Made by a program: the position numbers and the translations under genes. From Myxococcota bacterium (lineage in GTDB: Bacteria; Myxococcota_A; UBA9042; PHBI01; JAWLBL01): a stretch of DNA of 64,000 bases. Positions 12,417 to 47,747 of this stretch are shown here, one piece after another. How positions within the stretch are numbered: position 1 is the first letter of the stretch; the number at the start of each line of letters is the position of its first letter. The stretch is from contig JAWLBL010000019.1 of the NCBI GenBank assembly GCA_041687695.1, forward strand, positions 96,001 to 160,000, read 5' to 3'. A model generated the notes under the pieces. That model saw only the letters and a list, made by a program, of their open reading frames with translations. It searched no databases and was not told the DNA's origin.

Positions 12417-12437
12417 GAAAACCGTGGGTCTGGAAGA
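12411..12437. other. Left att junction (core ATCAAC + phage arm gaaaACCGTgggtcTGGAAGA)
   Basis: Phage arm is an imperfect inverted repeat of the arm at 47698-47716. Confidence 0.9.
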
Positions 12438-12682
12438 TGGTTGGGACTCCACCGTTCTCCGGTTTCGGCTGGTCGTCTAACCCGCGCAGTCGATTGCGCG
12501 ACCCGATCCCACTACGATCGGTGGTGACCGAGCCCAACCTCGACCCTGTCAACCCAACGAACCGTAACCCCCCGAAAGGAATACCAAGGGCTATCGGGGT
12601 CATGAGGGTGAACTTGACACCGTCACCCAGGCCGGGGTTCTTGGCCCCCATGCGTGGATGAGGAGAGAGGAGCCTCCAGTCG

Positions 12683-13138
12683 ATGACCAACGAAGAGCCC
12701 AGACTTGATCCGCTATCTCCGATTCAGAGAAGCGAGCGGATGTCAAGGGTTCGTTCGGGGAACACGAAGCCCGAGCTCGTGGTCCGCCGCATGGTTCATG
12801 CGATGGGGTACCGCTACCGCATCCACGGCAAGCGCGGGAAGACGCGACTTCCTGGCTCGCCCGACCTGGTCTTCGGTCCGAGGAGGAAGGTCGTCTTCGT
12901 GCATGGGTGCTTCTGGCATCGGCACGAGGGATGCCCCAACGACCGTCCGCCGAAGTCGCGCCAGGACTTCTGGCTCCCCAAGCTCGAGGCCAACCGTCAA
13001 CGCGACGAGGTCAACCTCAAGCTCCTGTGCGAGCTGGGGTGGGAGAGCCTGGTGGTATGGGAGTGCGAGCTGAAGAACCTTCCCGCTCTGGAGGAGAGGC
13101 TTCGGACCTTCATCGAAGGGAAAGCTGGTCGAGCATGA
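12683..13138 (+). CDS. vsr: Very short patch repair endonuclease
   Basis: RSERMSRVRSGNTKPEL, LPGSPDLVF, VFVHGCFWHRH, FWLPKLEANRQRD, LVVWECE. Confidence 0.93.
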   Translation: MTNEEPRLDPLSPIQRSERMSRVRSGNTKPELVVRRMVHAMGYRYRIHGKRGKTRLPGSPDLVFGPRRKVVFVHGCFWHRHEGCPNDRPPKSRQDFWLPKLEANRQRDEVNLKLLCELGWESLVVWECELKNLPALEERLRTFIEGKAGRA

Positions 13139-14334
13139 GAGCGGTCGAGTTGTTTGCGGGCGCGGGCGGTCTGGGGATCGGCACCGGTCGAGCGGGCTTC
13201 AAGCACGAGGTGGTGGTCGAGTGGGACCACGACGCCTGCGAGACGGTGCGCCACAACCAGCGGCGCCAGGTGCCTGACGTCCAGGGGTGGTCGGTCTTCG
13301 AGGGCGACGTACGGGCCTTCGACTTCGGGACCGTCGCGCCAGGCGTAACGCTGGTTTCGGGCGGTCCGCCCTGTCAGCCCTTCAGCCTGGGCGGCAAGCA
13401 TCGCGCCTTTAAGGACTCGAGGGACATGTTCCCGATGGCGGCCGAGGTCGTGCGTCAGCTGCGACCGGAAGTCTTCATCTTCGAGAATGTCAAGGGTCTT
13501 CTTCGAGAGGCCTTCTCGACCTACTTCGGCTACGTCATCCTCCGGCTCACTTATCCCGAGATGGTTCGCAAGGATCGAGAGGAGTGGCAGGACCACCTGG
13601 CCCGGCTCGAGCGACACCACACGGGCCCGCGACATGATGATGGTCTCCACTACCGGGTGGTCCACCAGCTCCTGAACGCGGCCGACTTCGGTGTTCCGCA
13701 GAGTCGGGAGCGGGTCTTCATCGTCGGGTTCAGGTCGGACCTACAGATGGAGTGGTCCTTCCCTCGAGCGACGCACTCGGCCGAGGCCCTGCTCCACAGC
13801 CAGTGGGTGACCGGCGAGTACTGGGACCAACACAAGATCTCGAAGAAGCGCCGACCTCAGCAGCCGACCCGGTACGCCGGCCGCATCACGCGCCTGAAGT
13901 CCACCGAGCCCGCCTGTCTTCAGTCGAGGTGGCTGACGGTTCGCGACGCCATCTGCGACCTGCCCGACCCTGAGCGCGAACCGCTGCTGGCTCAAGGAGT
14001 GCTGAACCACCGGTTCAACCCTGGAGCTCGGTCGTACCCAGGCCACACGGGCTCGCCTTGGGACTGGCCAGCCAAGACCCTGAAGGCGGGTGACCACGGA
14101 GTTCCGGGTGGTGAGAACATGCTGGCCCGAGAGGACGGCACGGTCCGGTACTTCACTGTCCGGGAGTCGGCGAGGCTCCAGACGTTCCCGGACAACTACG
14201 AGTTCCAGGGCTCGTGGTCGGAGGCGATGCGCCAGCTGGGCAACGCCGTCCCGGTCAAGCTCGCCCAAGCGGTCGCCGACTCGGTTCGATCCCACCTAGA
14301 GGATCGGAAAGCGGGTGGTCGAGGTGAGGCGTGA
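13135..14334 (+). CDS. DNA (cytosine-5) methyltransferase
   Basis: ATGA overlap with vsr; motif I FAGAGG, motif IV GGPPCQPFS, motif VI ENVKG, motif VIII QSRERVFIVG, motif X QLGNAVP. Confidence 0.95.
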   Translation: MRAVELFAGAGGLGIGTGRAGFKHEVVVEWDHDACETVRHNQRRQVPDVQGWSVFEGDVRAFDFGTVAPGVTLVSGGPPCQPFSLGGKHRAFKDSRDMFPMAAEVVRQLRPEVFIFENVKGLLREAFSTYFGYVILRLTYPEMVRKDREEWQDHLARLERHHTGPRHDDGLHYRVVHQLLNAADFGVPQSRERVFIVGFRSDLQMEWSFPRATHSAEALLHSQWVTGEYWDQHKISKKRRPQQPTRYAGRITRLKSTEPACLQSRWLTVRDAICDLPDPEREPLLAQGVLNHRFNPGARSYPGHTGSPWDWPAKTLKAGDHGVPGGENMLAREDGTVRYFTVRESARLQTFPDNYEFQGSWSEAMRQLGNAVPVKLAQAVADSVRSHLEDRKAGGRGEA

Positions 14335-14935
14335 ACCCGTCTTCAACCCGCTGGACAAGCGACACCTGGGCGAGAGCGTAGCCGAGGCGACGCTTCATCG
14401 GCCAGTCGGACCTCTTCCGCCCGAGGAGCCGTTCATCGCGGCGGGCGTGTATGCGATCTACTACGCTGGCGACTTTCCGGTTTACGAGCGCATCGCCGAG
14501 CGGAACCGAGAGGGGCGGTTCGAGGTCCCGATCTACGTCGGCAAGGCAGTGCCGGCTGGTGCTCGACGAGGCGGGTTCGGGCTCGGTGCTGACCCTGGAC
14601 AGGTCCTGTTCCGACGCTTGTGCGAACATGCCGAGTCCATCAGGGCGACACCAACTCTGGACATCGATGACTTCTACTGCCGGTACCTGGCGGTCGACGA
14701 CATCTGGATTCCGCTCGCGGAGTCAATGCTGATTGAGATGTTCCAGCCCCTCTGGAACCGGGTGGTCGACGGGTACGGGAACCACGACCCTGGACGCGGG
14801 CGACACGGCCAACAACGGTCCGCGTGGGACGTACTCCATCCTGGGCGGGTCTGGGCCGATAGGCTTCAGCCCGGCCGGGACATGGTCGACATCATCATGG
14901 ACATCAACGCCTACGTCGCAGGCAGAGGTTGGTAA
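14315..14935 (+). CDS. Eco29kI-family (GIY-YIG) type II restriction endonuclease
   Basis: GVYAIYY...PIYVGKAVP, RLCEH, IPLAESMLI, PLWN, GYGNHDPG; adjacent to C5-MTase. Confidence 0.85.
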   Translation: MVEVRREPVFNPLDKRHLGESVAEATLHRPVGPLPPEEPFIAAGVYAIYYAGDFPVYERIAERNREGRFEVPIYVGKAVPAGARRGGFGLGADPGQVLFRRLCEHAESIRATPTLDIDDFYCRYLAVDDIWIPLAESMLIEMFQPLWNRVVDGYGNHDPGRGRHGQQRSAWDVLHPGRVWADRLQPGRDMVDIIMDINAYVAGRGW

Positions 14936-15432
14936 GCATGCCAGCAGAAGAAGCAGGGCTACATCCTGCGCTGATTGCGGCCCTCATCTCAGCGGGAGTT
15001 ACGCTGTTTGTTGGTCCTCTGACTGCCGCATTCGTGACTCGTCGCGCTAACGGAAAGGCCCGAACGGCTGATCTGACTTTGCGATTATATGAGAGATACG
15101 CGGCCATATTGCCCGATCTCGCGGTGATCGTATCGGCGATGCGGGACCAGAACCTGACACCAGAGACATACGAGAAGTACCTTCATACGCGAAAGATTCT
15201 CCTGCTCGAAGAAGTCGGAGCCTTGGTTAAGCACAAGCGCTTGGACGATGCCCTTGTAAAGGAGCTGTTTCGCCAGCCGGTGAAGAAGGACGTCGTCCCC
15301 TGGCTCGAGGAAAAGACCGACGGCTACAAGATCGATATCAAACTCGGTGAGCAGAGAAGGGAAAGGTTCAAGATTCTCGGTCGAACTGTCGGTGTCCAAC
15401 TACAGTTCCCGGCAGTAGGGGCTGCAGAGTAG
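14929..15432 (+). CDS. Hypothetical membrane-anchored protein (low-GC cargo)
   Basis: 167-aa ORF with N-terminal hydrophobic helix; visibly lower GC. Confidence 0.55.
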   Translation: MVSMPAEEAGLHPALIAALISAGVTLFVGPLTAAFVTRRANGKARTADLTLRLYERYAAILPDLAVIVSAMRDQNLTPETYEKYLHTRKILLLEEVGALVKHKRLDDALVKELFRQPVKKDVVPWLEEKTDGYKIDIKLGEQRRERFKILGRTVGVQLQFPAVGAAE

Positions 15433-15474
15433 GTCGAGTAGCAGGGGCATCGATAGACGAAGGAGCCTTCGGTA

Positions 15475-16287
15475 ATGGAACGTCTATACGCCCGCATCTG
15501 GCTGCACCTCCCGAAGTATGTGGCCGCGATTCTGATCTTCATCGAGGTCGCGATCCTTGTCGGAGGGAACGCGACTTGGGCGTATTCGAGCGCTGCTTGG
15601 GAGTGGTTTCGGGCCAATACTGATGGCGGGACGAGGCTCCTCATACTGTTCTCAAGCGGGCTGGCGATTTGCGGTTTGGGAGTCTTCGTCGCCTTGCTGC
15701 TTCGAGAGGGGCTGGCGGCCGTGACCATAGGCCTCTCGAGGGCGGTGCTGACATCTCGGCCCCGGTGGGTGGCATCATTCCCAGGCGTGCTCTTGCCTCG
15801 CTCCGCCCAGGTGGTTCGGCTCCTCAACAAGGACAAGCAGTTCCTGGTCGACTACGTGGTTGCACGATCGGCGACCCAGCCGGACACATCTCAAGAGCAG
15901 GAGAAGTTTGTCCGGGACCTGATGACCAGAATCTCGAAGTCCCTCATGAAACCAGAGCATCACGAGTTCATCGCGGAACTCGCGCATGCCACGAGCTTGA
16001 CCCAGGACCAGCGCAAGTACGAACTGCTTGAAGACCAGATGCGCACGTTCGAGATGTTCGGCGCGGCCTTGCTGCTCTACGTCTGGATTTCGGCGCTGGG
16101 TTATCCTGGGGCAGCGCGAAGCACGGCAGGCGCTCTACTCGTTTTCGTCCTGCTCTGCCTGCTGATAGCCGCTTGGATGCGTCTACGGCGCAGGCTGGTG
16201 CGGGTGCTGGCCTGGGCGTACATCGAGATCTTCGTCGTGGCCGAGGGCGCCGACATCGAAGATCGAGAAGGCGAGGGCCCTCTCTGA
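15475..16287 (+). CDS. Hypothetical multi-pass membrane protein (cargo)
   Basis: RBS AAGGAG; two pairs of hydrophobic helices flanking a soluble segment. Confidence 0.6.
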   Translation: MERLYARIWLHLPKYVAAILIFIEVAILVGGNATWAYSSAAWEWFRANTDGGTRLLILFSSGLAICGLGVFVALLLREGLAAVTIGLSRAVLTSRPRWVASFPGVLLPRSAQVVRLLNKDKQFLVDYVVARSATQPDTSQEQEKFVRDLMTRISKSLMKPEHHEFIAELAHATSLTQDQRKYELLEDQMRTFEMFGAALLLYVWISALGYPGAARSTAGALLVFVLLCLLIAAWMRLRRRLVRVLAWAYIEIFVVAEGADIEDREGEGPL

Positions 16288-16293
16288 AGAAGC

Positions 16294-16713
16294 TTACTCC
16301 TCAGGCTCCGTCAGCTTCTTCCTGACCTTGGTCAGCGCCAGGTCGATCGCGGCGTCAATCCTCATCTGAGCACGCTGGTCAGCTCTCACGTGCCGCAGGT
16401 GACCGTTCTGATACACCTCGTTGGCCAACGCGACCCGGCCCATCAGTGAGTCGACCGCGTCCTCGATCGAGTGGAGCGAGGCCGGCGTCGTGACCATCTC
16501 GATCTCAGGGTCGTACTCGAAGCAGGTGTGCTGGTCCGGTCCGTCGAAGGCGTCGATCCACTCGGGCGGTGGGGTGCGGGAGAGCTTGATGGCCAGCAGG
16601 ACGTTGAAGCCGTCGTAGACAGGAGCGCTGTAGAGCTCGCGGTCGATGGGCTCGATCTTCACGTCGTCAGCGATCAGGGTGATGGGTGTCCAGGTCGACA
16701 TGGTGGACTCCAT
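16294..16713 (-). CDS. Hypothetical protein
   Basis: 139-aa ORF with plausible codon usage, convergent with upstream gene. Confidence 0.5.
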   Translation of the reverse strand: MESTMSTWTPITLIADDVKIEPIDRELYSAPVYDGFNVLLAIKLSRTPPPEWIDAFDGPDQHTCFEYDPEIEMVTTPASLHSIEDAVDSLMGRVALANEVYQNGHLRHVRADQRAQMRIDAAIDLALTKVRKKLTEPEE

Positions 16714-16881
16714 TGTTCAGTGCGTGTTCGGCATCGATATGGTCCGAATGTGACTCGGCTGAGTAGCCAAGGCAAACTGTAGTCGCACTGGCTCCGCAGA
16801 CCAACGCCTTCGATGGGCGCGGCTGCTTGCATCTCAGGAAGTCTCTCCTCCGTTCCAAGGAACGGGACTACCCATCCACAA

Positions 16882-17385
16882 TCACTTCTTGATAACGTCC
16901 CTTTCCACTTCGTCCGCTGCAGCAGATACCTCCGTCAAGTAAAAGCTCGGAAGCTCCTCGTTTGCGAACGTGACTTCTTGCCCGTCTTCAATTCGGGATG
17001 TGGTGGTTCCATATGAAATCACTACCTTCGAGCGAGTACCGGTTGCCGCTGGAGTGAGCGAAGTTGGCCGTGGTGGGCTCGAATCGAGCTTCTGTTTGAG
17101 CGCTTCGTATCGCAGTTCAAGTTCCATCAGCTTAGTCTTTTCGTTGCTTCGCTTGCTAAAATCTGCCCTGATTGCGCGAGCAATCCCGGTAGAAATCAAG
17201 CTGGCCGACACCGCAGCAAAGATGATGGCCAATTCGACCAGCGACTTCGGAGCGCCCTCACCGGAAACTGTCCCGCCATACACCAGGAATGTGGTGCCGA
17301 CTATCGCCAATATCGGGACCACGCCACCAATTATTCCGATACCGGCTGCAAGTAAGTTGATTTGAAGCGGAGTGGACGGTCTCAT
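16882..17385 (-). CDS. Hypothetical two-TM protein (low GC)
   Basis: Two hydrophobic helices then coiled coil; ATG overlaps stop of the gene ending at 17382. Confidence 0.5.
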   Translation of the reverse strand: MRPSTPLQINLLAAGIGIIGGVVPILAIVGTTFLVYGGTVSGEGAPKSLVELAIIFAAVSASLISTGIARAIRADFSKRSNEKTKLMELELRYEALKQKLDSSPPRPTSLTPAATGTRSKVVISYGTTTSRIEDGQEVTFANEELPSFYLTEVSAAADEVERDVIKK

Positions 17386-17858
17386 TTAAGCATCCTACGG
17401 AGCAGTGCCTTCAGGAAATCCACGAGACCGCCGTAAAAGAGTCCCTTCACGAGGGCCATGCTGAGGCTCTCGCCGGCCAAGGCCGCGACAATCGGGCCAG
17501 CGGTCATGCCCGAAAAGGAGCCGACAAGCAAGTCATGGAGCAACCCTTCAGGCTCGGTCTTGGCGAGCCGGGCTGTGACAGCCTTGAGCCCCCGAGGGAA
17601 GAAGGCGTCAAGGATCTGATCCGTACGCTTGACATGGTCGTTGATCTTCGCATGCAGCGCGTCGATCTCCTGGGGTGAGGCGGCTGTAGTGAGATCGTCC
17701 CTCAACTGGTCGATGTCCGAATCGATCTGATCGAGCACAAAACTTTGCTCGGGCGAAGCCTTACGGCGCGCTTCGTTCAGCCGACGTCTCAGTCCGCTGA
17801 GCGCCGTGCGGCCTTCATCCACCTTCGTGACGGGCCTTGGTCTAGCCGGAACTGTCAT
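17382..17858 (-). CDS. Hypothetical protein
   Basis: Helical ORF with hydrophobic C-terminus; start uncertain. Confidence 0.45.
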   Translation of the reverse strand: MTVPARPRPVTKVDEGRTALSGLRRRLNEARRKASPEQSFVLDQIDSDIDQLRDDLTTAASPQEIDALHAKINDHVKRTDQILDAFFPRGLKAVTARLAKTEPEGLLHDLLVGSFSGMTAGPIVAALAGESLSMALVKGLFYGGLVDFLKALLRRMLK

Positions 17859-18086
17859 GGTCGGGCAACCGATCGTCCATGCCCATCGGGTCGTGCCAGC
17901 CGCTCCCCGCGTGCTGGCACGTACCACCGCCCCTCGGTGCTGGTGCGATCCTTACCAAGAACTCGGCTCGACGCAAGCGACCCGCCACGGCGAGCCCGCG
18001 CAATCGGATTGCGCGACCGGAGACTTGACTAACGCGGGCATCCGTGATCCGGTCGGACGTCTCGATCACGATCACGGAGGCTCAAC

Positions 18087-19055
18087 ATGGTCCCCCCCTA
18101 CCTGCTCCCGATCCTGCTCTTCCTTGGTTCCGACCTAGACCACGTTGTATCGCATGATCCTGCGACGCACCTCTGCCGGGAAGGAGGGGAGCCTAGGCAG
18201 TACCCTCTTGAGGGCAAGAGGGACGCGATACATGCATGTATCAAGGAAGCGACTGTGAAGCGACACAGCTGTCCTGCCAAGACCGAGAAGCGGGTGAGCT
18301 ACGATCCTCAGGACGGGACCTTCGGGGTGTGGTGCGCAGATGATCGAGGACGTCGCCAGGGGCTCGAGGTCTCCTGGGCGGTCGACCATCAGCGCCGTTG
18401 GGAGTTCGAGTGGAAGGACGATCATAACCTGGTGCGGAGGTGGTGGAAGGACGGCCACCTCACGGCGATCGACTGTTTCGACGAGCACCGGAACGAAGTC
18501 CTGTGCCCCTGCCCGAAGGGAACCGAGAAAGTCTCGGATGGCGACCTATCTACTGAGTGGTGCGCTGATCGTCGCGGGAGGCGGACCGGGCCGATCGTCA
18601 CCTGGAGCGCTGGCAAGGGGGACGCCAAGTTCATCGCCGAGTCGGGCTACTACCTGAACGACAAGCGAGATGGCCTGTGGACCAGCTACACCTTCCTGGA
18701 AGGTAGGCTGACGTCGGCTGGCCACTACCGGGCGGGGAAGAAGGAAGGTCTGTGGCGCACCTTCCACGAGGACGGCTCAGTTGAGTGGGAGGCCACCTAC
18801 TCGCGTGGTCGATTCGAGGGAGTCATGCGCAAGTGGCACGCCAACGGCCAGCTCGCGAAGGAGCGGAGCCATCGTAGAGGCAAGATCGTAGGGACGGTAC
18901 GGACCTGGCATGAGAACGGGCAGCTCGCTTCCGAGGTGATGGTCCGCAAAGGTCGAGCCCACGGGCAGCGACGCTACTACGATGAGGACGGAGTGCTGAT
19001 CAGGACCGAGTGCTGGGTTGGCGGTCGGCAGGCGCCGTGTAAGCTTGAACCGTGA
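18087..19055 (+). CDS. Exported MORN-variant repeat protein (YwqK-like antitoxin/immunity family)
   Basis: RBS GGAGG; signal-like N-terminus; repeats GKKEGLWRTFHEDG, GRFEGVMRKWHANGQL, GTVRTWHENGQL. Confidence 0.75.
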   Translation: MVPPYLLPILLFLGSDLDHVVSHDPATHLCREGGEPRQYPLEGKRDAIHACIKEATVKRHSCPAKTEKRVSYDPQDGTFGVWCADDRGRRQGLEVSWAVDHQRRWEFEWKDDHNLVRRWWKDGHLTAIDCFDEHRNEVLCPCPKGTEKVSDGDLSTEWCADRRGRRTGPIVTWSAGKGDAKFIAESGYYLNDKRDGLWTSYTFLEGRLTSAGHYRAGKKEGLWRTFHEDGSVEWEATYSRGRFEGVMRKWHANGQLAKERSHRRGKIVGTVRTWHENGQLASEVMVRKGRAHGQRRYYDEDGVLIRTECWVGGRQAPCKLEP

Positions 19056-19061
19056 TAGGAC

Positions 19062-19487
19062 GTGGATACCGGTCCAAAGATGAACTCGCCAAAGCAGACC
19101 AGGGTCAGGATCCACAACCTGGCCGACACCATCCGGACCGGCTGGTACGAGCTCGCGTTGCTCATGGCCGAGGCGAAGGAGCGTGAGCTGTACCGCGACT
19201 GGGGGTACGAGGACTACCTCGCCTGGGCGAGCGAGGAGCTCGGGTACCAGAAGCGGATCACCCAGTACATGGTCGCGGTCGCGGAGCACTTCGGGACCGC
19301 GAGCCCCAAGGTCCAACAGTGGATCGCCGAGATCGGGGTGGCGAAGGCCAAGGAGCTGATCGGGCTGGTCGACGAGAAGAACCTCGTCCGCTGGCAGCGT
19401 GAGCTCCGAGAGGCCAATACCCCAATGGTGGCCGCTATCGCTCGAGCGGTGCGGGAGACCCTTGCCGAGCCCGAACCAGCGCAGTGA
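19062..19487 (+). CDS. Hypothetical protein, possibly DNA-binding
   Basis: 141-aa ORF, LYRDWGYEDYLAWASEELG segment. Confidence 0.55.
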   Translation: MDTGPKMNSPKQTRVRIHNLADTIRTGWYELALLMAEAKERELYRDWGYEDYLAWASEELGYQKRITQYMVAVAEHFGTASPKVQQWIAEIGVAKAKELIGLVDEKNLVRWQRELREANTPMVAAIARAVRETLAEPEPAQ

Positions 19488-20062
19488 CCTCGTCGATCAG
19501 GTCGGCCGCATGAGCCGCGATCCCGCTCGGGTCGCCCATCTCACGGAGGGTGCCGGCCCTCAGGTCGAGCGCGACCTCGAGCTCAGCCAGCAGAGACGTC
19601 ACGGTATCGAGCTGTTCAGTCATAACAGGTCTCCTGGGGCTGGCTGTGGGTGAAGGCACGGGATAGCGGACGGTATCAAGTGCCCAGGTCGGCCAGAGCA
19701 GAGATGAGCCGCTTCCGAATGTGGGGGTCCTCGACCACGGGCCCGATGTAGCGGACGCCCGGGACGACCGGCTCGGGCTCAGGCTCGGGGCGGACGACGC
19801 GCAGGTGGCCACGGCGAACCAGGCTGGCGATGCGGGCAAGGGTCGGGTGGATCGCGGTGGCGGGCTGGGTCATGGGCGTGGCGTCCTCGCGCGCGGCGTT
19901 CTTCTTGGCGTGTGGCCCTTCGGGCCTTTGACGAGATCTACCCCGGGTCCGGAGCTCGGTGCAAGTGATTGCACTTTTCAACGGAAGTGCCAACTCGGCG
20001 CGAGCGTCAGCTCGCCCCCTCTAGGTCCCTCTCTTTCAACCTCTCTCCTCTCTTTCTATGGG

Positions 20063-20145
20063 GTCTCATCTGGGGGACGAAACCGTCTCATCTGGGGGAC
20101 GGACCGTCTCATCTGGGGGACGCTGACCGTCTCATCTGGGGGACG
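20063..20145. repeat. Four identical 17-bp direct repeats GTCTCATCTGGGGGACG (iteron-like)
   Basis: Copies start at 20063, 20085, 20106, 20129 (periods 22, 21, 23 bp). Confidence 0.9.
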
Positions 20146-20273
20146 CTTTGACTCTGAGGAGGAACTTGTCACCCGTGACCGGAGGAGGCTACTCTCGTCG
20201 AGTAGACAAAGAAAAACCCCGGCAGGCTGCTTTGGTCGGTCGCCTACCGGGGTCAAAAGGAAAAGAAACTGAT

Positions 20274-20996
20274 ATGAAGAATACGGTCGCGCGTGTCGGC
20301 AGTCCAGCCTGCGCTTCGATTCAAAGAGACTTCAGCAAGGTGCCCTGGACCACGACGTTGATCCCTGAGGACCTGCTCGACTGGGCCGATGAGGACAAGG
20401 CCCGTGTTACAGCGTTCGCATTGGCCGCGCTGCTGTACTGTTCGAGTCGGGGCGGCGAGGTCACGAGATGCGTCGCGACGTCGGCCGAACTGCTAGGGAT
20501 CAGCAAGGCGACCAGTTGGCGAGCGGTCTCAATGCTCAAGGAGATCGGCATCGCTCGCGACGAGACCGGGACGTGGCACGGGATGCGCGTGCCCACTCGA
20601 GAATCCATCAGCGGCTGGCTGGCCATCCCGAGTGAGATCGTCGTCGACCCTCGCCGCAAGCCCATCGATATCATCTGGCTCGCGCGCTTGCTCCGCTTGT
20701 GCGAGCAGGAGAGCCAGGCAGCTGGGGGAGAGGACCGCCGCGAAATGGTTCACCCGCGCGCATGGGTCCTGAGGTCGCAGTACGCCGTCGCGACCAAGCT
20801 GGGCACCTCAAGGAACACCACCCACAAGGCGATCCAGAGGCTGGCCGAACTCGGCTACGTGGACGTGCGCGGACAGGGGGTGAACGTACAGCCCCACATG
20901 CCCCGGCAGCTCGGGCTCGTCGGTGGGATCGTCCAGGCCCTGCGCGGTCAGGCCGACGTTGTCCGGCTTGAGGATTGGCGGCGGCATGAGTCGTAA
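20274..20996 (+). CDS. Two-HTH protein, candidate replication initiator
   Basis: HTH-like VATSAELLGISKATSWRAVSML and SQYAVATKLGTSRNTTHKAIQRLAELGYV; directly downstream of iterons and A-rich tract. Confidence 0.6.
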   Translation: MKNTVARVGSPACASIQRDFSKVPWTTTLIPEDLLDWADEDKARVTAFALAALLYCSSRGGEVTRCVATSAELLGISKATSWRAVSMLKEIGIARDETGTWHGMRVPTRESISGWLAIPSEIVVDPRRKPIDIIWLARLLRLCEQESQAAGGEDRREMVHPRAWVLRSQYAVATKLGTSRNTTHKAIQRLAELGYVDVRGQGVNVQPHMPRQLGLVGGIVQALRGQADVVRLEDWRRHES

Positions 20997-22052: not shown

Positions 22053-22098
22053 TGGTGCGCTCGGACGTCAGTCTCCCTCGGGCTGCGGCAATACGGCC

Positions 22099-23555: not shown

Positions 23556-23581
23556 GCCCTTGGACGGGGCCGGGTGAACCG

Positions 23582-26550: not shown

Positions 26551-26598
26551 CGGCACCGATCCTATCGGACCACCCATGGTGAACCGGTGGAGGGTCTC

Positions 26599-27144: not shown

Positions 27145-27146
27145 CG

Positions 27147-27512: not shown

Positions 27513-27586
27513 CCCGAAGGGGTCGCTCCCTCTGGACGGGGAGTCGTCGAGAACCAGGTGGGGTCATTCGTTAGGAGTGACCCAAA

Positions 27587-31640: not shown

Positions 31641-31641
31641 C

Positions 31642-32333: not shown

Positions 32334-32337
32334 CGAC

Positions 32338-34863: not shown

Positions 34864-34867
34864 CGCG

Positions 34868-39689: not shown

Positions 39690-40678
39690 TGGCCTACGAC
39701 GTGATCAAGTACGGGACGCTCGCGGGCGGGCTTCGGGGGAACGCTCCGGCGTGGGGGCGCCTCGTCGCGAACCACGACGCGCTGTACGAGGCCTACGCCC
39801 CACCGATCACATATGGGGCGTCGTCGGAGGCGGACCCCCTCGTCGTCGCCGACACCGCCGACGCGAGCCTGTCGGAGACGTACCAGCCGTACCTCCGCTG
39901 GATCGTGCCTCGGGACCTGGACAACGTCCCGGTGGCGGTGACGGTGATCGCGCGCTGCACAGCAAACCAGGTGGGGGTGAAGCTGGTCAGCGGGGCGAAC
40001 GAGGACTCCATCGGGGTGGCGTCCCCGACGTGGATCGTCTTCACCCTGACGGTCACCCCGGACGGGTCGCCGGGGCCGGCGCCGCTCTACGGGCGCGAGG
40101 TGCGCCTTGAGATGGCGGCGACTACCGAGCTGGCGACGGCCGCCGACATCCTGACGGTGAGCGCGCACTACGCCCCGACCAGCGTCCCGTCCGGCGTCCA
40201 ACCGTCGGGCTGGGCACGCATGGCAAGCTCGCCGGTGACGGACGCTGACGAGCCGCTGACCAGCGAGAGGGTGGCGCGGCTGATCAACGGGCCGGTCTAC
40301 CTGGCGAAGGACCGGCCGGCCTGCGTGGCGTCCATGCTGCAGGACACGGCGGACGCCAACCGGGGCGGCGGTCGCTGGTCGACCCTCTCGAGCGACTGGG
40401 TCACGGCCGGCAAGGTCTCCATCCCCCCGCAGCCCAAGGGGACGCCCCCGATGGTCTACGGGGTCGCGGTCTACACCGGCGGCGACGACACGGAGCTAAA
40501 CCTCACGGTGCCCGGGACTTCGGCCGGCCTGTCGTTCAGCGGGGCAGGGTGGAGCTACGCGACGTTCGCGCACAACAACCCGGGCGCCCCCCTCAGCGGG
40601 TTGGTCCGGCTCCGAACCACGGGCATCAAGGCGAGCCTGCACACGCTGCAGGTGTTCCGCATCGGCGAGGTGAGCTGA
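39686..40678 (+). CDS. Putative tail-associated protein
   Basis: 330 aa, beta-rich, coupled ORF. Confidence 0.55.
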   Translation: MMAYDVIKYGTLAGGLRGNAPAWGRLVANHDALYEAYAPPITYGASSEADPLVVADTADASLSETYQPYLRWIVPRDLDNVPVAVTVIARCTANQVGVKLVSGANEDSIGVASPTWIVFTLTVTPDGSPGPAPLYGREVRLEMAATTELATAADILTVSAHYAPTSVPSGVQPSGWARMASSPVTDADEPLTSERVARLINGPVYLAKDRPACVASMLQDTADANRGGGRWSTLSSDWVTAGKVSIPPQPKGTPPMVYGVAVYTGGDDTELNLTVPGTSAGLSFSGAGWSYATFAHNNPGAPLSGLVRLRTTGIKASLHTLQVFRIGEVS

Positions 40679-40679
40679 G

Positions 40680-41261
40680 ATGGTGACGAAGGCCCCGCTC
40701 GCGACGCCCCTTTCGATGATGGCGCCGGTCGCGCTGACGGACCGGGCGCTCGCCCGCGTGACCCACCTGGCCTACGCAGACATCAACCAACACACGCTGG
40801 CGACCGCGTTCGGTGGACCGGCGACCTGGCTCCCGGTGGACCTCGAGTGCTCGTCACCGGGCGTGCCGACGACCGGCCAGCTCCTGTACCGGGTTCCGCT
40901 CGGGGTGACGCACTTGAAGGTGCGGGCGCGGGTCCAGGGCAGGGGGACGCTGCGCGTGACGAGCACCGACCTGGCCGGCGTCGACCTGGACGCGGAGGGC
41001 GCGCTTTTCAGCTGGTACACCGACGAGATGGACCCGTCGCTGCTGACGGTCGAGTTCGGGATGTCCGTCTCGACGACCAAGCTGGACGACACGGCGACGG
41101 ACGCGCGACGGCACCTGATCGTGTCGGCGTCCAGCGCGATGGCCTGGCAGGACGTGATCCTTCACCTGTCGCTGGACGCGGCGACGGCGGACGTTCACGA
41201 GTTCGCGAAGCTCTACAGCCTGGCTCTCGAGCCGCTGCACCCGCTGCTGGCGGCCAGCTAG
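40680..41261 (+). CDS. Putative tail-associated protein
   Basis: 193-aa ORF continuing the late operon. Confidence 0.5.
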   Translation: MVTKAPLATPLSMMAPVALTDRALARVTHLAYADINQHTLATAFGGPATWLPVDLECSSPGVPTTGQLLYRVPLGVTHLKVRARVQGRGTLRVTSTDLAGVDLDAEGALFSWYTDEMDPSLLTVEFGMSVSTTKLDDTATDARRHLIVSASSAMAWQDVILHLSLDAATADVHEFAKLYSLALEPLHPLLAAS

Positions 41262-41398
41262 AGGGGTTCGCAGCCCATGATCTGCCGGGCCATGTCGCCG
41301 CCGGGACAGCACTGGGTCCCGGGCTCGTAGCCGGTCGGCATGTCGGCCTCGCACCCGGCGAGAAGGGCGGCGAGCGCGCAAACGATCAAGCTCCGCAT
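41258..41398 (-). CDS. Small antisense lipoprotein (46 aa; not in ORF track)
   Basis: Manual translation MRSLIVCALAALLAGCEADMPTGYEPGTQCCPGGDMARQIMGCEPL*; lipobox LAGC; fills the gap between two late genes. Confidence 0.55.
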   Translation of the reverse strand: MRSLIVCALAALLAGCEADMPTGYEPGTQCCPGGDMARQIMGCEPL

Positions 41399-41493
41399 GG
41401 TGGTCACCCGTTGAGATGGAGGTCGGCACCGGTCCTATCGCACGTAGGCCAGTGAAGGCGCAGTCGAGCGCCCCCAATCGAAGAGGCGGCACG

Positions 41494-41979
41494 ATGGCAA
41501 CCTACGGAGACAAGAGGAAGGCGCACGTCGAACCGGTGCGCGTGGTCGGCATCGGGACGGACGTGGCCGAACCGGGCGCGACCATCGATGGCGTCACGAT
41601 GGTCGTCGGGGACAGCGTGGCGGTGCTCGGTGTCGAGGGCGCGGGGATCTACGACTGGAACGGCGCGGCCGTCCCGATGACACGGCGCGACGACCGTCCG
41701 ATCGGCTTCACCGCCGGGACGGCGTTCGTGGTGCTCGAGGGCGACGACTGGGGCGGGAGGATCATCGCGGTCACGGACGCCGAAGAGGGGATGCCCGTCG
41801 TGCTGACGCCGGCTCGCCACAACTTCAGCGCGACCTCCGCCCCGACGGCCGCCGACGACGAGGACAGCCTCTACGGGCCGGGCTCCATGTGGGTCGACAC
41901 CGTGGCGGGTACCGCCTACCTCTGCACTAGCGGGGCGACCGGCGCCGCCGTCTGGAAGCAGTTCACGTTCGTCGCCTGA
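41494..41979 (+). CDS. Putative tail fibre/decoration-like protein
   Basis: TIDGVTMVVGDSVAV...GIY; APTAADDEDSLYGPGSMWVD...ATGAAVW motifs seen in phage fibre proteins. Confidence 0.55.
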   Translation: MATYGDKRKAHVEPVRVVGIGTDVAEPGATIDGVTMVVGDSVAVLGVEGAGIYDWNGAAVPMTRRDDRPIGFTAGTAFVVLEGDDWGGRIIAVTDAEEGMPVVLTPARHNFSATSAPTAADDEDSLYGPGSMWVDTVAGTAYLCTSGATGAAVWKQFTFVA

Positions 41980-42008
41980 TCGGCGGGCTTCCGACGGAGG
42001 GTTCCACG

Positions 42009-42335
42009 ATGACCGAGACCACGAAGAGGCACCCGCACGCGAAGATCGTCGCCGCCATCATCGCCGCCTTGGTGGCGATCGGCGGCGGGGTCTACGGGCT
42101 GGGCGAGACCGAAGGCGTGACCACGGTGACGACCGCGACCGTGCAGGGCCTGGACGCCCGGGTCGCGGCCAACACGGTGGCGATCGCCGAGATCCGTGTC
42201 CAACAGGAGGCGGCCAACCAGGTGCTCGTTCGGCTGGACCGGACGATCGAACGCCTGGACGTGACGCTGGCCGAACTCGCCCGCGTCGTCGCCCGCATGG
42301 AGGGGCGCGACGCCATCCTGGGCACGAGCAAGTGA
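42009..42335 (+). CDS. Membrane-anchored coiled-coil protein (i-spanin- or holin-like)
   Basis: RBS GGAGG; single N-terminal TM plus heptad coiled coil. Confidence 0.5.
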   Translation: MTETTKRHPHAKIVAAIIAALVAIGGGVYGLGETEGVTTVTTATVQGLDARVAANTVAIAEIRVQQEAANQVLVRLDRTIERLDVTLAELARVVARMEGRDAILGTSK

Positions 42336-42685
42336 AGCGGGTCCTGTTCGCGGCGCTGCTGGCCGGCTGTTCGGTCGACCTGCAGCGCCGGCCTGACCAG
42401 TTCCCCCCGCTCGAGCTGGGCGCCGGGCCATGCACGGTGACGATCGCGTCCGAACACGCGACCGTCACCATCCACCTGGGCGACGTGTCCGCGCTGGTCG
42501 TCAGAGAGGCGACGGTCCGAGCCCTCAAGGGGCTGGCCGGTCAGGGCCTACAGGTCACGCCGATGATGATCGCACTCGTCGAGGGGCTCACGATTGCCGG
42601 GGTCGACGAGGGGCTCTGCCGGGTCCTCGACAAGGCCCGCAGCCATCTCAACGGCCGACTGGACCTGCTGGTCGAACGACGCTGA
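42332..42685 (+). CDS. Lipoprotein (o-spanin-like position)
   Basis: MKRVLFAALLAGC lipobox; GTGA overlap with upstream gene. Confidence 0.55.
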   Translation: MKRVLFAALLAGCSVDLQRRPDQFPPLELGAGPCTVTIASEHATVTIHLGDVSALVVREATVRALKGLAGQGLQVTPMMIALVEGLTIAGVDEGLCRVLDKARSHLNGRLDLLVERR

Positions 42686-42781
42686 CGCGGGCTCGACGCT
42701 TCCCGCTTGCTCGCGACTAGCGTGTTCCTCTTGAGACCGTTTCCCTAGCGGCCCGCCACAGAGCCTTGCAGGCACAGGGCC

Positions 42782-42939
42782 TAGTGGTCGGAATGGGGAA
42801 TTCTGCAACTTCTTGGGTTGACGGCGGCCCATCTAGCCGCCATCGTTGTAAGCCTCCAACGACGACGCGTTCGGCGAAACGAGCCCTCCGGGGGGAGGGG
42901 CGTGCCGACCTCGTTACCGCCTCCGGCCCCAGTGGCCGA
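42782..42939 (+). repeat. ~155-bp diverged copy of host nrdJ upstream region (59447-59601)
   Basis: 51-bp identity 42857-42907 = 59522-59572, with colinear similarity on both sides. Confidence 0.9.
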
Positions 42940-43470
42940 AGCGCGGCGACGTGTGTTGACCCGTAAGCCTCCCCCACAGCAGGTTCCAGCCAACACACGA
43001 ACAGTCCGTCACGGCACGCTTCCCGTTCTGACACGGGGAGGGCAGCACATGCCCGGGCGTAGGTGCTCGGGCCTGACGACGGAAACGGAGCAGTGCTCCG
43101 TAGCCTCGGTCAGGAGAAGCCACCTCGCCCGAACCAGGGCTGGGTTGCGTTCCGGCAGGTGCGAACCAAGACCAGGAGACAGAGAACGAACAAGGGGCTG
43201 CAACGCAGCCAAGCTACGAAGCAGCCCCGTGAAGACCTAGACCAACCAAAAAATCACCAGAGCTTGCTGGCAACTGCTCAGCGCGCTGGCCGGCGCGCCG
43301 CAGGTTGGCAACCAGGCGTGCGAACAACTCTGTCCAAGGCGTTCGTAGGTCCCGGTCGAGTAGATGTCAAGCGGGCTTGCTGCAACCCAGAGACCTGGGG
43401 GGTCGGCTGCGTGGGCGTTCCACCGTAGCTGCACCGGTTTCCCGGGTACTGCAGGCCACCTGCAGTACGC
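42850..43470 (+). ncRNA. Candidate large structured non-coding RNA or long leader (strand inferred)
   Basis: No convincing ORF; many nested local and long-range inverted repeats with A-rich linkers. Confidence 0.4.
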
Positions 43471-43501
43471 CTCCGTGCGTTCCGCACAAAGGCATCAAGC
43501 C

Positions 43502-43588
43502 ATGGTCGAGTTCCTGTTCGGCATCATCCTCGGCATCATCGCTCGCGACGTGTGGCCCCGTGGCACCCGTCCGCCGGCGAAGAAGTAG
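43502..43588 (+). CDS. 28-aa hydrophobic peptide
   Basis: MVEFLFGIILGIIARDVWPRGTRPPAKK; followed by strong hairpin. Confidence 0.35.
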   Translation: MVEFLFGIILGIIARDVWPRGTRPPAKK

Positions 43589-43609
43589 CAGGGGAGCCTG
43601 ATCGCGCGG

Positions 43610-43640
43610 CGGGTTCACGGGGAACGGTCCCGTGAACCCG
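43610..43640. terminator. 12-bp stem hairpin between convergent genes
   Basis: CGGGTTCACGGG / CCCGTGAACCCG perfect inverted repeat. Confidence 0.55.
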
Positions 43641-43659
43641 ACCGTAACCTCACAGGCGC

Positions 43660-43971
43660 TCAGCCGCCCCCGACGCGGGTCCCGCCGCCCTCGTAGCCGT
43701 TGCCGACGCCGGTCCCGTTTGCAGCGAAGCCGTTGCCGACGGTGCCTTCGTACCCGACGGTCCCCTTATAGCGGCCGTCGTCGTCGTAGCCGCCTCCAAT
43801 CTCGGTTTCCTTCGCGGCGACCGTGAAGCCACCTCGCTCGACGCCGTTGTCGGCGGAGGCGGTGAAGCCGCCGGTGGTTCCGCTGCTGTCGTGGGAGGTG
43901 ATCAGGAAGCCACCACCCGAGTAGCCGCCGGTGGCCAGAAGGGTCGCAGCCGCGATGATGATGAGCTTCAT
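43660..43971 (-). CDS. Small secreted Gly-rich protein
   Basis: RBS GAGG; signal MKLIIIAAATLLA; Gly/Tyr-rich mature part. Confidence 0.55.
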   Translation of the reverse strand: MKLIIIAAATLLATGGYSGGGFLITSHDSSGTTGGFTASADNGVERGGFTVAAKETEIGGGYDDDGRYKGTVGYEGTVGNGFAANGTGVGNGYEGGGTRVGGG

Positions 43972-44063
43972 GGGAGCCTCTGTGGTAGGTGCCGGTAACC
44001 CGCAGACGGGCAACCGTTCCACAGAATTCCAGGGAGCTCGTGCTAAGTGCAACGCTTCGGTCG

Positions 44064-44780
44064 TCAGCTGCCCTTGGAACGGTCAATCTTTGCCTGGAGT
44101 GTCGCCCTGCGCTCTCGGCTCCGAGCGGGCTGCACGTAGAAGAACTCCAAGAGGTCATCGAGGACTTGGAGCATGAGCTGAGCCTCGTTCTCTTCGATGT
44201 CGAGGATCTCACCTGTCACGCCGTCGGCCTTCAGGTGAACCGCGATGTTGCCCAGCTGCCGGACGTGGTCCAGTTCCTCGTGGAGGTGCGCCGGGAACCG
44301 CTGTTCGGCGAGCTTCAGGAGCCCGGCAAGGTTGGTCCGAGGCGAGGCGCTGGTGGCCTCGAGCAGGATGGCTTCCATGCACCGGCGGGAGAGCGCCGCC
44401 GAGGCCCGAGGGCTGATGTCGAGGATGGCCCAAGCCTCGCGCCAGTCCTTCGCGATCCCCTCGGGCACGGCCGGGTCTGGGGCGCGAGAGCGGAAGCGGG
44501 GATAGATGACCTGGTCAGGCCAGGGAGTACCGGAAGCGAGACCGATGTCGGCTCCGATGACCAGGATCGGGAAGTCACAGACTGGACATAGGAATCCGAC
44601 GAGCGCCCACTCGCTCCGGCCTCGACTGCAGACCCAGTGAAAGGTCAGCGGAACCCACTCGCTCTCCTGCTGCCAGCTCTGGCCACCACGGACGCGCATG
44701 GGCTCGCCCAGGTTGACCTTCTCTTGACAGTGTGGACAGGTCACCCGCGAGCCCTGATAGTAGACGTTCTCGTCGTTCAT
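44064..44780 (-). CDS. DUF4145-like (HEPN-related) protein with Zn-ribbon, copy 1
   Basis: CPHC...CPVC; DWREAWAILDISPRASAALSRRCME; VRQLGNIAVH (R-x4-6-H-like). Confidence 0.75.
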   Translation of the reverse strand: MNDENVYYQGSRVTCPHCQEKVNLGEPMRVRGGQSWQQESEWVPLTFHWVCSRGRSEWALVGFLCPVCDFPILVIGADIGLASGTPWPDQVIYPRFRSRAPDPAVPEGIAKDWREAWAILDISPRASAALSRRCMEAILLEATSASPRTNLAGLLKLAEQRFPAHLHEELDHVRQLGNIAVHLKADGVTGEILDIEENEAQLMLQVLDDLLEFFYVQPARSRERRATLQAKIDRSKGS

Positions 44781-44944
44781 CGTGGTCTCCGACGATTGCT
44801 CTCGTGGTCAACCTACCCCACCGGCGTCGATGCGCAACCGCGTCGATGGTCGAGGCTATCGACCTGCTTCAGCGACGGCGTCCGAACTGATGAAGGACGC
44901 GGCGGTCAAGGCAGGAGTCGAGAGGAGCGTAGAAGACCAGGACG

Positions 44945-45319
44945 TTGACAGGGTGGGATCTCGCGATCCTCATCAGAGCTATGAGACCTACCCACGACGT
45001 CCCTGCATCCGTGCTCGAGCTGATGGCCCAGCAGACGAGCTGGACCTGGTGCATCGAGGTCCTGACCGGATGGCTCAACAGGACCAAGCGCTGCTACACG
45101 GTCTACGACGTATACTGCTTCCTGGTCGAGCACAGGCCCGGTGAGGCGGTCGACTACGACTACATCGCCCGTCGCCTCAGCCAGAGCAGTACGCCCGGCA
45201 CCTACTACTGGGTGGCCTTCGGTCCCGACCATGAGTCGGCTCGGCAGTACTACGAGGCCCTGCGTGGGCGTCTGTCGCTGGCCGAGGTCGACGGAGGCGA
45301 GCTGTCGCTGACGAACTAG
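44945..45319 (+). CDS. Hypothetical protein
   Basis: ORF between the two DUF4145-like paralogues, on the opposite strand; start uncertain. Confidence 0.45.
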   Translation: MTGWDLAILIRAMRPTHDVPASVLELMAQQTSWTWCIEVLTGWLNRTKRCYTVYDVYCFLVEHRPGEAVDYDYIARRLSQSSTPGTYYWVAFGPDHESARQYYEALRGRLSLAEVDGGELSLTN

Positions 45320-46017
45320 GTAGCCTTCGAGGTCTTGGCCTTCAGGGCAGCTTGCCGCTGAGCACGCTTGGCCGGCTGGACGTAGTAGAAGTCCAGCAAC
45401 TCATCCACGATGGTGAGCAGCGCCTCGGCCTCGTCCTGGTTGATCTCCATGATGGATCCCGTCGTGGAGTCCGACTTGAGATGGACTGCGATGTTGCCCA
45501 TCTTCCGAACCTCGTCGAGGTGCTGTTCGAGGTCTGACGGCAGCGTGGGCCCGACGCTGGTGATCATGTCGACCAGCCGAGTCTTCGGGTTCTGCTTGCC
45601 AGCGTCAACGAGGGTCGCCTCGATGCAGCGACGCGAGAGCGCCGCCGAGGCCCGTGGGCTCAGGTCGAGGATCGCCCATGCCTCCTGCCAGTCCTTGGCG
45701 ATGTCGGCAGGTACGACTGGGTCTGGCGCGCGGACTCGAGCGGCAGGGTGGACGATCCGTTCGTCAAGGACTTTCCCACCTGTGATGTCGTTTTGCACGG
45801 TTCTCAGGACGAGCACGAGTTGATCGCAGACTGGGCAGACGTAACCCCTTAGTTCTTGACGCTGCTGGCTTCTGTTCCGTTGCCAGGTGAGGAACAAGGA
45901 CACGAGGGTCTGTCGGTCGCGGTCGTCGAGCGCAAAAACCTGTGTGTATTCGGGTAGGTTGATGGGCTGCTCGCAGTGGGGGCAGGTAACCCGGGCCTTC
46001 GGCTCGTAGCTCGTCAT
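45316..46017 (-). CDS. DUF4145-like (HEPN-related) protein with Zn-ribbon, copy 2
   Basis: RBS AGGAGAGG; CPHC...CPVC; DWQEAWAILDLSPRASAALSRRCIE; VRKMGNIAVH. Confidence 0.75.
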   Translation of the reverse strand: MTSYEPKARVTCPHCEQPINLPEYTQVFALDDRDRQTLVSLFLTWQRNRSQQRQELRGYVCPVCDQLVLVLRTVQNDITGGKVLDERIVHPAARVRAPDPVVPADIAKDWQEAWAILDLSPRASAALSRRCIEATLVDAGKQNPKTRLVDMITSVGPTLPSDLEQHLDEVRKMGNIAVHLKSDSTTGSIMEINQDEAEALLTIVDELLDFYYVQPAKRAQRQAALKAKTSKAT

Positions 46018-46139
46018 GTTCCTCTCCTAGGGGGCCAGAGCTTAGCGGACCCTCAAGGATCCGCAACGTCGTTCGGGACGGACGAACCTTGATCGGGTCT
46101 GTCGTCTTCCGCTACTCAGAGCTGAGCGGAGGAACGCCA

Positions 46140-47747
46140 ATGACCGAGCCCACGCAATCGACTGCGCGACGAGCTGTCATCTACGCCCGTGTCTCGAGCC
46201 AGGGGCAGCGGGACCGCCAGACCATCGAGTCCCAGCTCCGGGTCTTGCCCGAGTTCGTCGAGTCCCGGGGGTGGGAGCTGGTCAGGCCCACCGACACCTA
46301 TATAGACGATGGGTTCTCGGCCAAGGCCGGGGGACTCGACGACCTCAAGGGCCGGGCCCAGCTGCTCTCGGATGCCGAGGCGGGCCTCTTCGACCTGGTG
46401 GCGGTGGTCGACCAAGACCGGCTCACCCGATCGGAGGACTTGGTCGAGCGCGGCTACATACTGGGTTCGCTCCAGCGGGCTCAGATCCAGATCGCGGTTC
46501 AGTCCACCGGCCAGGTGCTCGACCTCTCGAGTTCCGAGGGCGACCTGCACGCCAGCCTCCAGGGGTTCTTCAGCGCCGAGGAGAACCGCAAGCGTCGGAA
46601 GCGAACTCTCGATGGCAAGCAGACCGCGATCAAGCGTGGCCGTAAGCCCTCCGGCCCAACCCCCTACGGCTACAACTACGATCGAACCACCGGTACCTGG
46701 ACCATCGACCAGGACCAGGGTGCGATCGTACGCGAGCTCTTCGAACGGGTCGCTGGCGGCGAGTCCTGCCACAGCCTTGCCAGGGAGCTGAACGAGCGAG
46801 GGGTCCCTCGCCCCAGGAGCGGCGCCTGGCAGCAGGCGCGGGTCAACCAGATCGTCCGCCAGCGCGCCTACATCGGGACCTACACGGCCGACAAGAAGAG
46901 GAACCTGACCATCGAGGTCCCGAGGATCGTGAGCGACTGGCTGTTCGAGCAGGCCGAGATCGCCCTGCAGGCCAACCGGTTCCACCTCAACCCCAAGACC
47001 AACCACTACAACCTGGCCCAGGGGATCGGGGTCTGCGGGGTCTGCGGCCAGGACATCCTGCTTACGGGCAACAAGCTCAAGAAGCGGTACTACGTCTGCC
47101 GGTCCAAGAAGGGGCTGGGCAAGGACGTCGAGCGCTGCCCCAACCCGATGCGGCAGGTCGAGCCCACCGACGAGAAGATCTGGGCGCAGGTCCGCTACGT
47201 GCTCGAGCAGCCCGACCTCCTGGAGGGAGCGGTCCAGCTCCGGATCGATCGGGCCAACGAGACCGACTGGGAGGCCGAGCTCAAGGAGACCGAGTCCAAG
47301 CTGGCCGCCATCGATCGCCGGGCCCAGAACGTCCTCAACTCCTACATGAAGGGGTTGATCGCCGACGACGTCTACGAGCAGCACCTGGTGTCGACGCAGC
47401 GGGACCGAGAGGGGCTGGAGCGCCAGCGCGATCTGGCCAACCAGAACCTGCTGGCCGCCAAGAGGACCGAGCAGGAGACCCGTGCTCTTCGGGCGACCGT
47501 CGAGAAGCTCAAGCAGAACCTCGACACCGCGTCACCAGAAGAGCGCCAGAAGCTCGTCAGGATGCTGATCCCAGGCCGGGACGGGTACCGGATCACGTTC
47601 GAGCAGGACGGGACCCTGACCATCATGGGGATGGTGGATGCCGGGACACCCGCATCGAACAAGGCTGGATCAGGGGAAGGAGAGGGCGGCTCGGGTGTCT
47701 TCCACGATGACGGTGTATCAACCAGCTGCGACAGAAGATCGGGGTGA
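46140..47747 (+). CDS. Large serine recombinase (phage integrase)
   Basis: YARVSS catalytic Ser, DRLTRS, PYGY, recombinase domain, Zn-ribbon CGVCG...YYVC...C, coiled coil; ORF runs across the right att junction. Confidence 0.95.
47698..47722. other. Right att junction (phage arm TCTTCCAcgatgACGGTgt + core ATCAAC)
   Basis: Inverted-repeat partner of 12417-12437; recA coding resumes at the core. Confidence 0.9.

Follow-up and report, generated by a model that had tools for sequence, protein, structure and literature searches.

A prophage without CCGCGG carries a predicted Eco29kI-type restriction-modification cassette and interrupts a myxococcal recA paralog

The vsr-M-R cassette and its prophage

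The window analyzed here is a stretch of 64,000 nucleotides from a Myxococcota bacterium (GenBank assembly GCA_041687695.1, contig JAWLBL010000019.1, positions 96,001 to 160,000 of the forward strand). It harbors a prophage that contains no copy of the hexamer CCGCGG and carries a restriction-modification (R-M) cassette predicted to recognize this very site. Pfam and PHROGs matches to a terminase large subunit (TerL), capsid, tail tube and tape measure identified the prophage body (12417..47716) as that of a tailed temperate phage. The cassette is an operon of three genes in the order vsr-M-R, which come first after the left attachment site (attL) and all lie on the plus strand.

The first gene, vsr (12683..13138), is predicted to encode a very-short-patch T:G mismatch endonuclease (PF03852, 1.5e-24; PADLOC Vsr, 1.1e-22), and its product resembles the E. 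coli Vsr protein 1cw0 over the full length (3.9e-23, residues 15-146). Its stop codon overlaps the start codon of the second gene, M (13135..14334), as ATGA. The product of M matches C5-cytosine DNA methyltransferases (MTases; PF00145, 1.2e-56; PADLOC MTase_II, 6.4e-127) and aligns with M.Eco29kI at 49% identity over 390 columns (E 3e-128), the two being collinear even in the variable region between the conserved motifs. The start of the third gene, R (14315..14935), overlaps the end of M. Its product was assigned to the Eco29kI family of GIY-YIG Type II restriction endonucleases on the basis of PF09517 (8.2e-66; 221.3 bits against a curated cut-off of 30.8) and the Eco29kI structure 3mx4 in the PDB (5.6e-42), and is 45.6% identical to the R protein of plasmid pECO29. 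The active site of R.Eco29kI comprises Y49, Y76, R104, H108, E142 and N154, established by mutagenesis according to the account in PMC1952068. All six residues are kept in the prophage protein, as Y46, Y74, R101, H105, E136 and N148, respectively, and occupy invariant alignment columns.

Eco29kI, Cfr42I and R.DraR1 from D. radiodurans are all described as cutting CCGCGG, with CCGC^GG given as the cut position, and these characterized enzymes are about as far from each other as from the prophage R. Because the R residues are conserved, M is similar over its full length and the family members share CCGCGG, this specificity is well supported by homology and very probably applies to the cassette, as the preliminary description had proposed. 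Judged from its genes, the cassette is a genuine Eco29kI-type Type IIP 5-methylcytosine (m5C) R-M system. The M-R pair is also kept together in four other Myxococcota genomes, at 50-59% identity for M and 45-55% for R. On contig C203 of genome G407 (around 29000-36000), a chromosomal M-R pair with 53% and 45% identity to the prophage pair is accompanied by a vsr homolog (54%) on the opposite strand, at a distance of about 5 kb. By sequence similarity, vsr, M and R travel together in more than one arrangement.

In 11700-15600, no sigma-70-like promoter was predicted, and shuffled sequence yields terminator-like sites in similar number to the two detected there. A terminator-like hairpin with a T-run lies 3' of R (14990..15016, plus strand), a consensus match only of a kind that shuffles give about as often. 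The cassette stands directly 3' of the truncated 5' part of a recA gene and in the same orientation, with no terminator-like site predicted in 12417-12683. Read-through into vsr-M-R from a damage-inducible recA promoter is conceivable.

The interrupted gene is a recA paralog on the plus strand. Its 5' part (11865..12416) was recognized by PF00154 (1.3e-88) on the open reading frame (ORF) 11229-12527, covering RecA profile positions 3-189, and a genome search placed this match at C19:107865-108425. The 3' part (47723..48190) matched PF00154 (7.4e-30, profile positions 194-261) and PF21096 (RecA_C). The RecA profile match stops at about 12416 (position 189) and restarts at about 47744 (position 194). 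Reading of the sequence revealed the same hexamer, ATCAAC, as the core of attL (12411..12416) and of the right attachment site, attR (47717..47722), and the recA reading frame is regained when the two halves are joined at this core. At the right end lies a gene for a large serine recombinase (46089..47747, plus strand) with Resolvase, Recombinase and Zn_ribbon_recom domains, the likely integrase. An intact, full-length second recA is present on contig C27 (G000:C27:26001-26792), and the lysogen is therefore probably not RecA-null. Overall, the features of the element suggest an intact temperate tailed phage, put into one of two recA paralogs by its large serine recombinase. Gene calls in high-GC loci were picks based on GC content at third codon positions (GC3).

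Absence of CCGCGG from the prophage

The prophage limits used for counting (12417-47716, 35.3 kb) were the boundaries given in the preliminary description. The window holds 35 CCGCGG sites, with 18 on the left (the last at 12103), 17 on the right (the first at 48970) and none between, which leaves a CCGCGG-free interval (12109..48969) of 36,867 bp between the bordering sites. The reported absence from the prophage was thereby confirmed, as was the richness of the left flank, although its count of about 17 had to be corrected to 18. Markov models of order 1, 2, 3 and 4 expect 44.8, 34.0, 30.2 and 20.4 sites in the prophage, respectively, and 36-62 in the flanks, where 35 were observed. The comparison of 6-mers with Markov expectation that had been suggested earlier placed CCGCGG at depletion rank 1 among 2080 strand-symmetric 6-mers (z of -8.0 at order 3 and -6.5 at order 4). 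By simple arithmetic, the Poisson probability of zero sites is at most about e^-20, roughly 1e-9. The early, late and right-arm modules each lack the site against order-3 expectations of 7.2, 22.4 and 2.5.

The GC content of the prophage (0.671) is below that of the host flanks (0.721), and a lower GC content, codon usage or oligonucleotide bias might be thought to leave the prophage short of CCGCGG as an artefact of composition or by chance. However, the order-4 model still leaves some 20 sites to be accounted for. A synonymous-codon shuffle that kept the proteins and the codon usage of each gene was run 500 times on 40 gene segments covering 32.2 of the 35.3 kb; it gave 33.2 +/- 5.0 sites, and no run fell below 19. 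The frame was wrong in two segments, a minor shortcoming. The prophage contains 186 CCGCG/CGCGG 5-mers, of which none is completed to CCGCGG, compared with 25.3% in the host, and host windows matched to the prophage in GC content show observed/expected (O/E) ratios of 0.92-0.94. These four results refute the compositional explanation, which we find hardly credible. Under both the Markov and the codon-shuffle nulls, the O/E of the prophage lies below the 0.1 that defines complete elimination. The absence of CCGCGG from the prophage is real and far beyond chance.

The prophage also stands out against the whole assembly, which contains 11,776 CCGCGG sites in 7.97 Mb on 63 contigs. Its gap is the longest CCGCGG-free gap of the genome, the runner-up measuring 11,482 bp, and of 1499 windows of 10 kb, those with at most one site are six that overlap the prophage and two others.

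A passive route to the same outcome would be mutational decay, in which CCGCGG sites methylated by the m5C MTase encoded in the cassette were lost by deamination of 5-methylcytosine (5mC) to T. This process would leave its products behind, and about 30 extra C-to-T neighbor words would have shown. These words are in no excess over the host, with prophage and host O/E of 0.86 and 0.88 for CTGCGG/CCGCAG and of 1.11 and 1.08 for TCGCGG/CCGCGA. Moreover, the cassette brings Vsr repair with it, and the host chromosome, which would be equally methylated, retains 11,776 sites at an O/E of 0.85-0.93. The counts of deamination products effectively refute mutational decay and make it very improbable. 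The sites went by selection on synonymous choices, not by deamination.

Since the host chromosome is not depleted, the R-M system appears not to have shaped it for long. The prophage R is the only PF09517 gene in the host genome and the sole candidate there for a CCGCGG enzyme. No other M.Eco29kI-like MTase was detected in this genome, in which the specificity of other MTase classes was not assessed, and a search for M.DraR1-like proteins returned only one match, at 25% identity. For lack of a second M.Eco29kI-like MTase, the roughly 11.8 thousand host sites would depend on the prophage M. The counts of 0 and 11,776 sites thus bear out the earlier proposal that the phage needs no methylation and that the host relies on the phage MTase.

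Further avoided palindromes and related prophages

CCGCGG is not the only palindrome that the prophage avoids. Compared with the codon shuffle, it is also poor in GGGCCC (6 observed, 22.3 expected), ACGCGT (1 and 9.3), GTGCAC (0 and 5.8), GACGTC (14 and 29.0) and CGTACG (3 and 14.6), each of these counts being matched by only 0-1 of the 500 shuffles. The prophage carries no enzyme for any of these five sites. A second phage element of the same genome (C1:1-11120 together with C57:5761-13292) has the loss of CCGCGG, GACGTC, GGGCCC and ACGCGT in common with the prophage. The C1 segment encodes baseplate J, GP46, a peptidase G2 tail fiber, an amidase, a half-length C5-MTase match, a kinase and AbiJ, and the C57 segment, which possibly belongs to the C1 element, encodes a serine recombinase and a fused Dam-like MTase. 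The two segments may be terminal parts of one additional phage element or of two.

Host DNA poor in CCGCGG was also inspected. A low-GC island beside an MmeI-family Type IIG R-M gene (G000:C52:7095-18575) contains no CCGCGG where 7.3 sites are expected and avoids no other palindrome. The long site-free gaps at C17 and C22, like the one at C52, show no other palindrome avoidance, an observation of little weight because they were picked for lacking CCGCGG. The idea of a filter, whereby the resident R-M system admits only CCGCGG-free foreign DNA, was rejected as a general effect because low-GC host windows are not generally depleted.

In order to find related prophages, the TerL sequence (23582..25075, plus strand; PHROG 2, 2e-28) was used as a query, which identified 10 loci with 28-39% identity in eight other genomes of the class. 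Four of these loci are CCGCGG-free, and all four are in two genomes, G072 and G086. In G072, the loci on contigs C36, C15 and C35 are site-free over 36.3 kb, at least 52.4 kb and 20 kb (the whole stretch examined), against order-3 expectations of 18.5, 60.3 and 5.1, respectively; in G086, the locus on contig C8 is site-free over 34.0 kb against an expectation of 4.0. The flanks of the four loci contain 1-9 CCGCGG per 2.5 kb. The other six loci (in G077, G044, G106, G096, G095 and G102) contain CCGCGG, those of G095 and G102 being under 3 kb. Each of the compared prophages avoids its own set of further GC-rich palindromes. No MTase or restriction endonuclease family was found in the 68 ORFs that were scanned out of 98 picked in and around two of the site-free prophages.

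Site-free prophages occupy no fewer than three positions in the TerL tree, and each position adjoins a site-bearing relative. The G086 prophage has a relative with CCGCGG as its sister (100/100 support), one site-bearing prophage joins all three from G072 in a clade that also has 100/100 support, and the focal phage stands alone on a long branch. As all three G072 prophages are CCGCGG-free, the pressure appears to act at the level of the host strain and not through phage ancestry. The selection against CCGCGG in G072 and G086 may come from a CCGCGG-targeting system of an unrecognized kind. A further observation concerns the site of integration, as the distantly related, CCGCGG-free prophage at G072:C36:188755-226131 has a large serine recombinase and adjoins an intact recA-ssb pair. 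This phage group may target the recA neighborhood repeatedly.

Searches for closer relatives by TerL gave only a 28% match in a phage collection, none in viral and metagenome contig collections and a spurious match of 26 residues in a genome contig collection, and the host family is represented in the genome collection by this genome only. With no close relative in these collections, the gain of the cassette and the loss of CCGCGG are not datable relative to each other. The five other Eco29kI-carrying genomes yielded no TerL_ATPase match and one weak capsid-like match (G091:C12, 23.5 bits).

Among the other genes of the prophage, one in the early region (18087-19055) specifies a MORN-repeat protein, and an ORF just 5' of the packaging genes (21423-22052) has an N-terminal part like endonuclease VII/HNH, followed by a C-terminal GIY-YIG domain, and looks like a homing-endonuclease-type gene. 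The right arm carries two putative defence genes on the minus strand, both DUF4145 and PD-T7-4-like (44064..44780, PF13643 1.4e-9, PADLOC PD-T7-4 6.9e-13; and 45316..46017, PF13643 4.1e-9, PADLOC PD-T7-4 2.8e-15). Their annotation suggests that these two paralogs are a second defence cargo, so that predicted defence-type cargo sits at both prophage ends.

Origin of the avoidance, role of the cassette and known systems

Taken together, the best reading of these data, which we hold with slightly more than even confidence, combines general anti-restriction avoidance with a prophage-borne R-M system for defence and addiction. The avoidance would be an ordinary adaptation to CCGCGG-cutting enzymes that circulate in the host population, and the same pressure would hit phages that have no cassette. 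Selection would have stripped all CCGCGG from the phage, mostly through synonymous codon choice, and left it inherently insensitive to its own R and to isoschizomers of any kind; this loss would have pre-adapted the phage to carriage of the cassette, or helped it. In the lysogen, provided that the cassette is expressed, M would methylate the roughly 11.8 thousand CCGCGG sites of the host, Vsr would repair T:G mismatches arising there from 5mC deamination, and R would cut incoming unmethylated DNA that contains CCGCGG. Since the phage has no CCGCGG substrate, M and Vsr would act only on host DNA. The cassette would in this way serve as a lysogenic-conversion defence module, alongside the two PD-T7-4-like genes at the opposite end, and loss of the prophage would be penalized, as with any Type II R-M system.

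A different origin is a purge driven by the phage's own nuclease, in which a long-resident cassette exposes unmethylated progeny DNA to R during burst replication and CCGCGG is selected out in consequence. We regard this as possible, although it is not what we would expect to have happened. Several observations favor it and weigh against the preceding interpretation. The most depleted word of the phage, and the only one called fully eliminated, is exactly the predicted site of its own enzyme, and its elimination is total across all three modules. Total elimination of a site is less common in temperate phages, according to the account in Rusinov et al. (2018, PMC6286503), and constant self-restriction in burst replication would explain the strength of the avoidance. 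Furthermore, an external source of the pressure is not obvious. Few genomes of the host lineage have an Eco29kI-family gene, namely 2 of 107 in the class and 6 of 401 sampled in the phylum, the focal genome included, and in the focal genome the only PF09517 gene is the phage's own. Profile searches of G072 and G086 returned no PF09517 and no PF00145 match, and the site-specific MTase of D. radiodurans pCP1, presumed to be M.DraR1 from the position described in PMC10855626, found no match in G072 and only a 21% match in G086. With no CCGCGG enzyme found in these two genomes and the family being rare, external pressure is inferred rather than demonstrated. The weak capsid-like locus of G091, a genome with an Eco29kI-type M-R pair, is unconfirmed as a prophage and not depleted in CCGCGG, and low-GC host windows of 5 kb have a CCGCGG O/E of 0.70 (8 windows) or 0.92 (22 windows).

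Against a self-driven purge stand the comparative data. Four of the 10 related loci are fully CCGCGG-free without the cassette, the TerL tree implies three or more separate losses of CCGCGG, and the five other palindromes are avoided without cognate enzymes being carried. The absence of close relatives leaves the gain of the cassette without a date, and its GC content (0.647) is no different from that of the surrounding early region (0.628), so that its age is not readable from composition in either direction. A more specific version, which we consider doubtful, is a one-sided R-M system, in which the phage purged CCGCGG after gaining the cassette, freed itself from dependence on its own M, with host and foreign DNA left as the only targets of Vsr, M and R, and thereby made the nuclease harmless to itself at entry, in burst replication and during packaging, while the host with its 11,776 sites became a hostage and loss was penalized when excision restores the recA paralog.

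The interpretation offered in the preliminary description is thus partly supported. It had taken the avoidance as a sign of long-term residence of the cassette, a view which, as put, lacks support in the face of the CCGCGG-free relatives that lack the cassette, of their scatter on the TerL tree and of the avoidance of other palindromes. Its alternative, avoidance of a CCGCGG enzyme of the host lineage, accounts for the comparative data no less well. In general, the identity of an avoided site with the site of a self-encoded enzyme is not proof of long co-residence, because CCGCGG-free prophages recur in Myxococcota genomes without a recognizable CCGCGG enzyme. For the interpretation, this comparative result weighs more than the natural case that the prophage itself presents.

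With regard to function, the cassette, judging from its genes, is most likely cargo for defence that brings addiction as an unavoidable side-effect. The defence reading is favored because of the attachment site-proximal moron position, the vsr-M-R layout with overlapping genes and the PD-T7-4-like companions. The arrangement is also of the addiction type, as the R-M system lies between attL and attR, the host has 11,776 sites and a second M.Eco29kI-like MTase was not detected. Alternatively, R may be a host-directed weapon that shreds the chromosome during lytic growth for shut-off and nucleotide recycling. Chlorovirus-encoded restriction enzymes offer a comparison for such a role; there, protection is by methylation, whereas here it would be by absence of the site. 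The one-sided distribution of targets, with 0 in the phage and 11,776 in the host, and the retention of all catalytic residues in R would suit a weapon. However, R is the last gene of the operon, preceded by vsr and M, and the genes overlap at their stop and start codons; this layout is a host-protecting one, and vsr is useful only with long-term methylation of host DNA. In addition, the host sites would already be methylated in the lysogen at induction, and the cassette occupies the moron position near the attachment site, outside the early lytic genes. We consider a weapon role improbable, since the presence of vsr and M speaks for lasting upkeep of the host DNA.

The favored combination of general avoidance and defence cargo joins two known kinds of phenomenon, restriction-site avoidance in phages and prophage-borne Type II R-M systems, with the twist that M and Vsr have no substrate on their own element. 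The prophage is therefore a clean natural case of a temperate phage with a complete predicted Type II R-M system plus vsr and no target of its own. As the methylase and repair genes would serve the host only, the defence or addiction role of the cassette is unusually easy to test.

Among known systems, the closest in makeup is Eco29kI on the E. coli plasmid pECO29 (NC_001537.1), which shares with the cassette the Pfam family, the six active-site residues, a collinear M and adjacent, overlapping R and M genes. It differs in its gene order, R-M without vsr compared with vsr-M-R, and in its carrier, a small plasmid instead of a prophage. The DraI system of D. radiodurans is described as having an endonuclease of the same family but an N4-cytosine MTase, in contrast to the C5-MTase of the prophage, and killing on loss of M is reported for this related system. 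The avoidance itself resembles the cases described by Rusinov et al. (2018, PMC6286503), in which a 6-bp palindrome of an orthodox Type II system is completely eliminated from a double-stranded DNA phage and other palindromes are partly depleted; the difference is that here the phage carries an enzyme predicted to recognize the very site that it has eliminated. According to the account in Oliveira, Touchon and Rocha (2014, PMC4176335), Type II systems are over-represented among the rare prophage-borne R-M systems, and the roles proposed for them are the exclusion of other phages and the stabilization of lysogeny through post-segregational killing. The present cassette resembles those systems in being a complete Type II system within prophage boundaries and differs from them, as they are described there, in that the prophage has no target sites, M and Vsr would act on the host only, and a recA paralog is interrupted.

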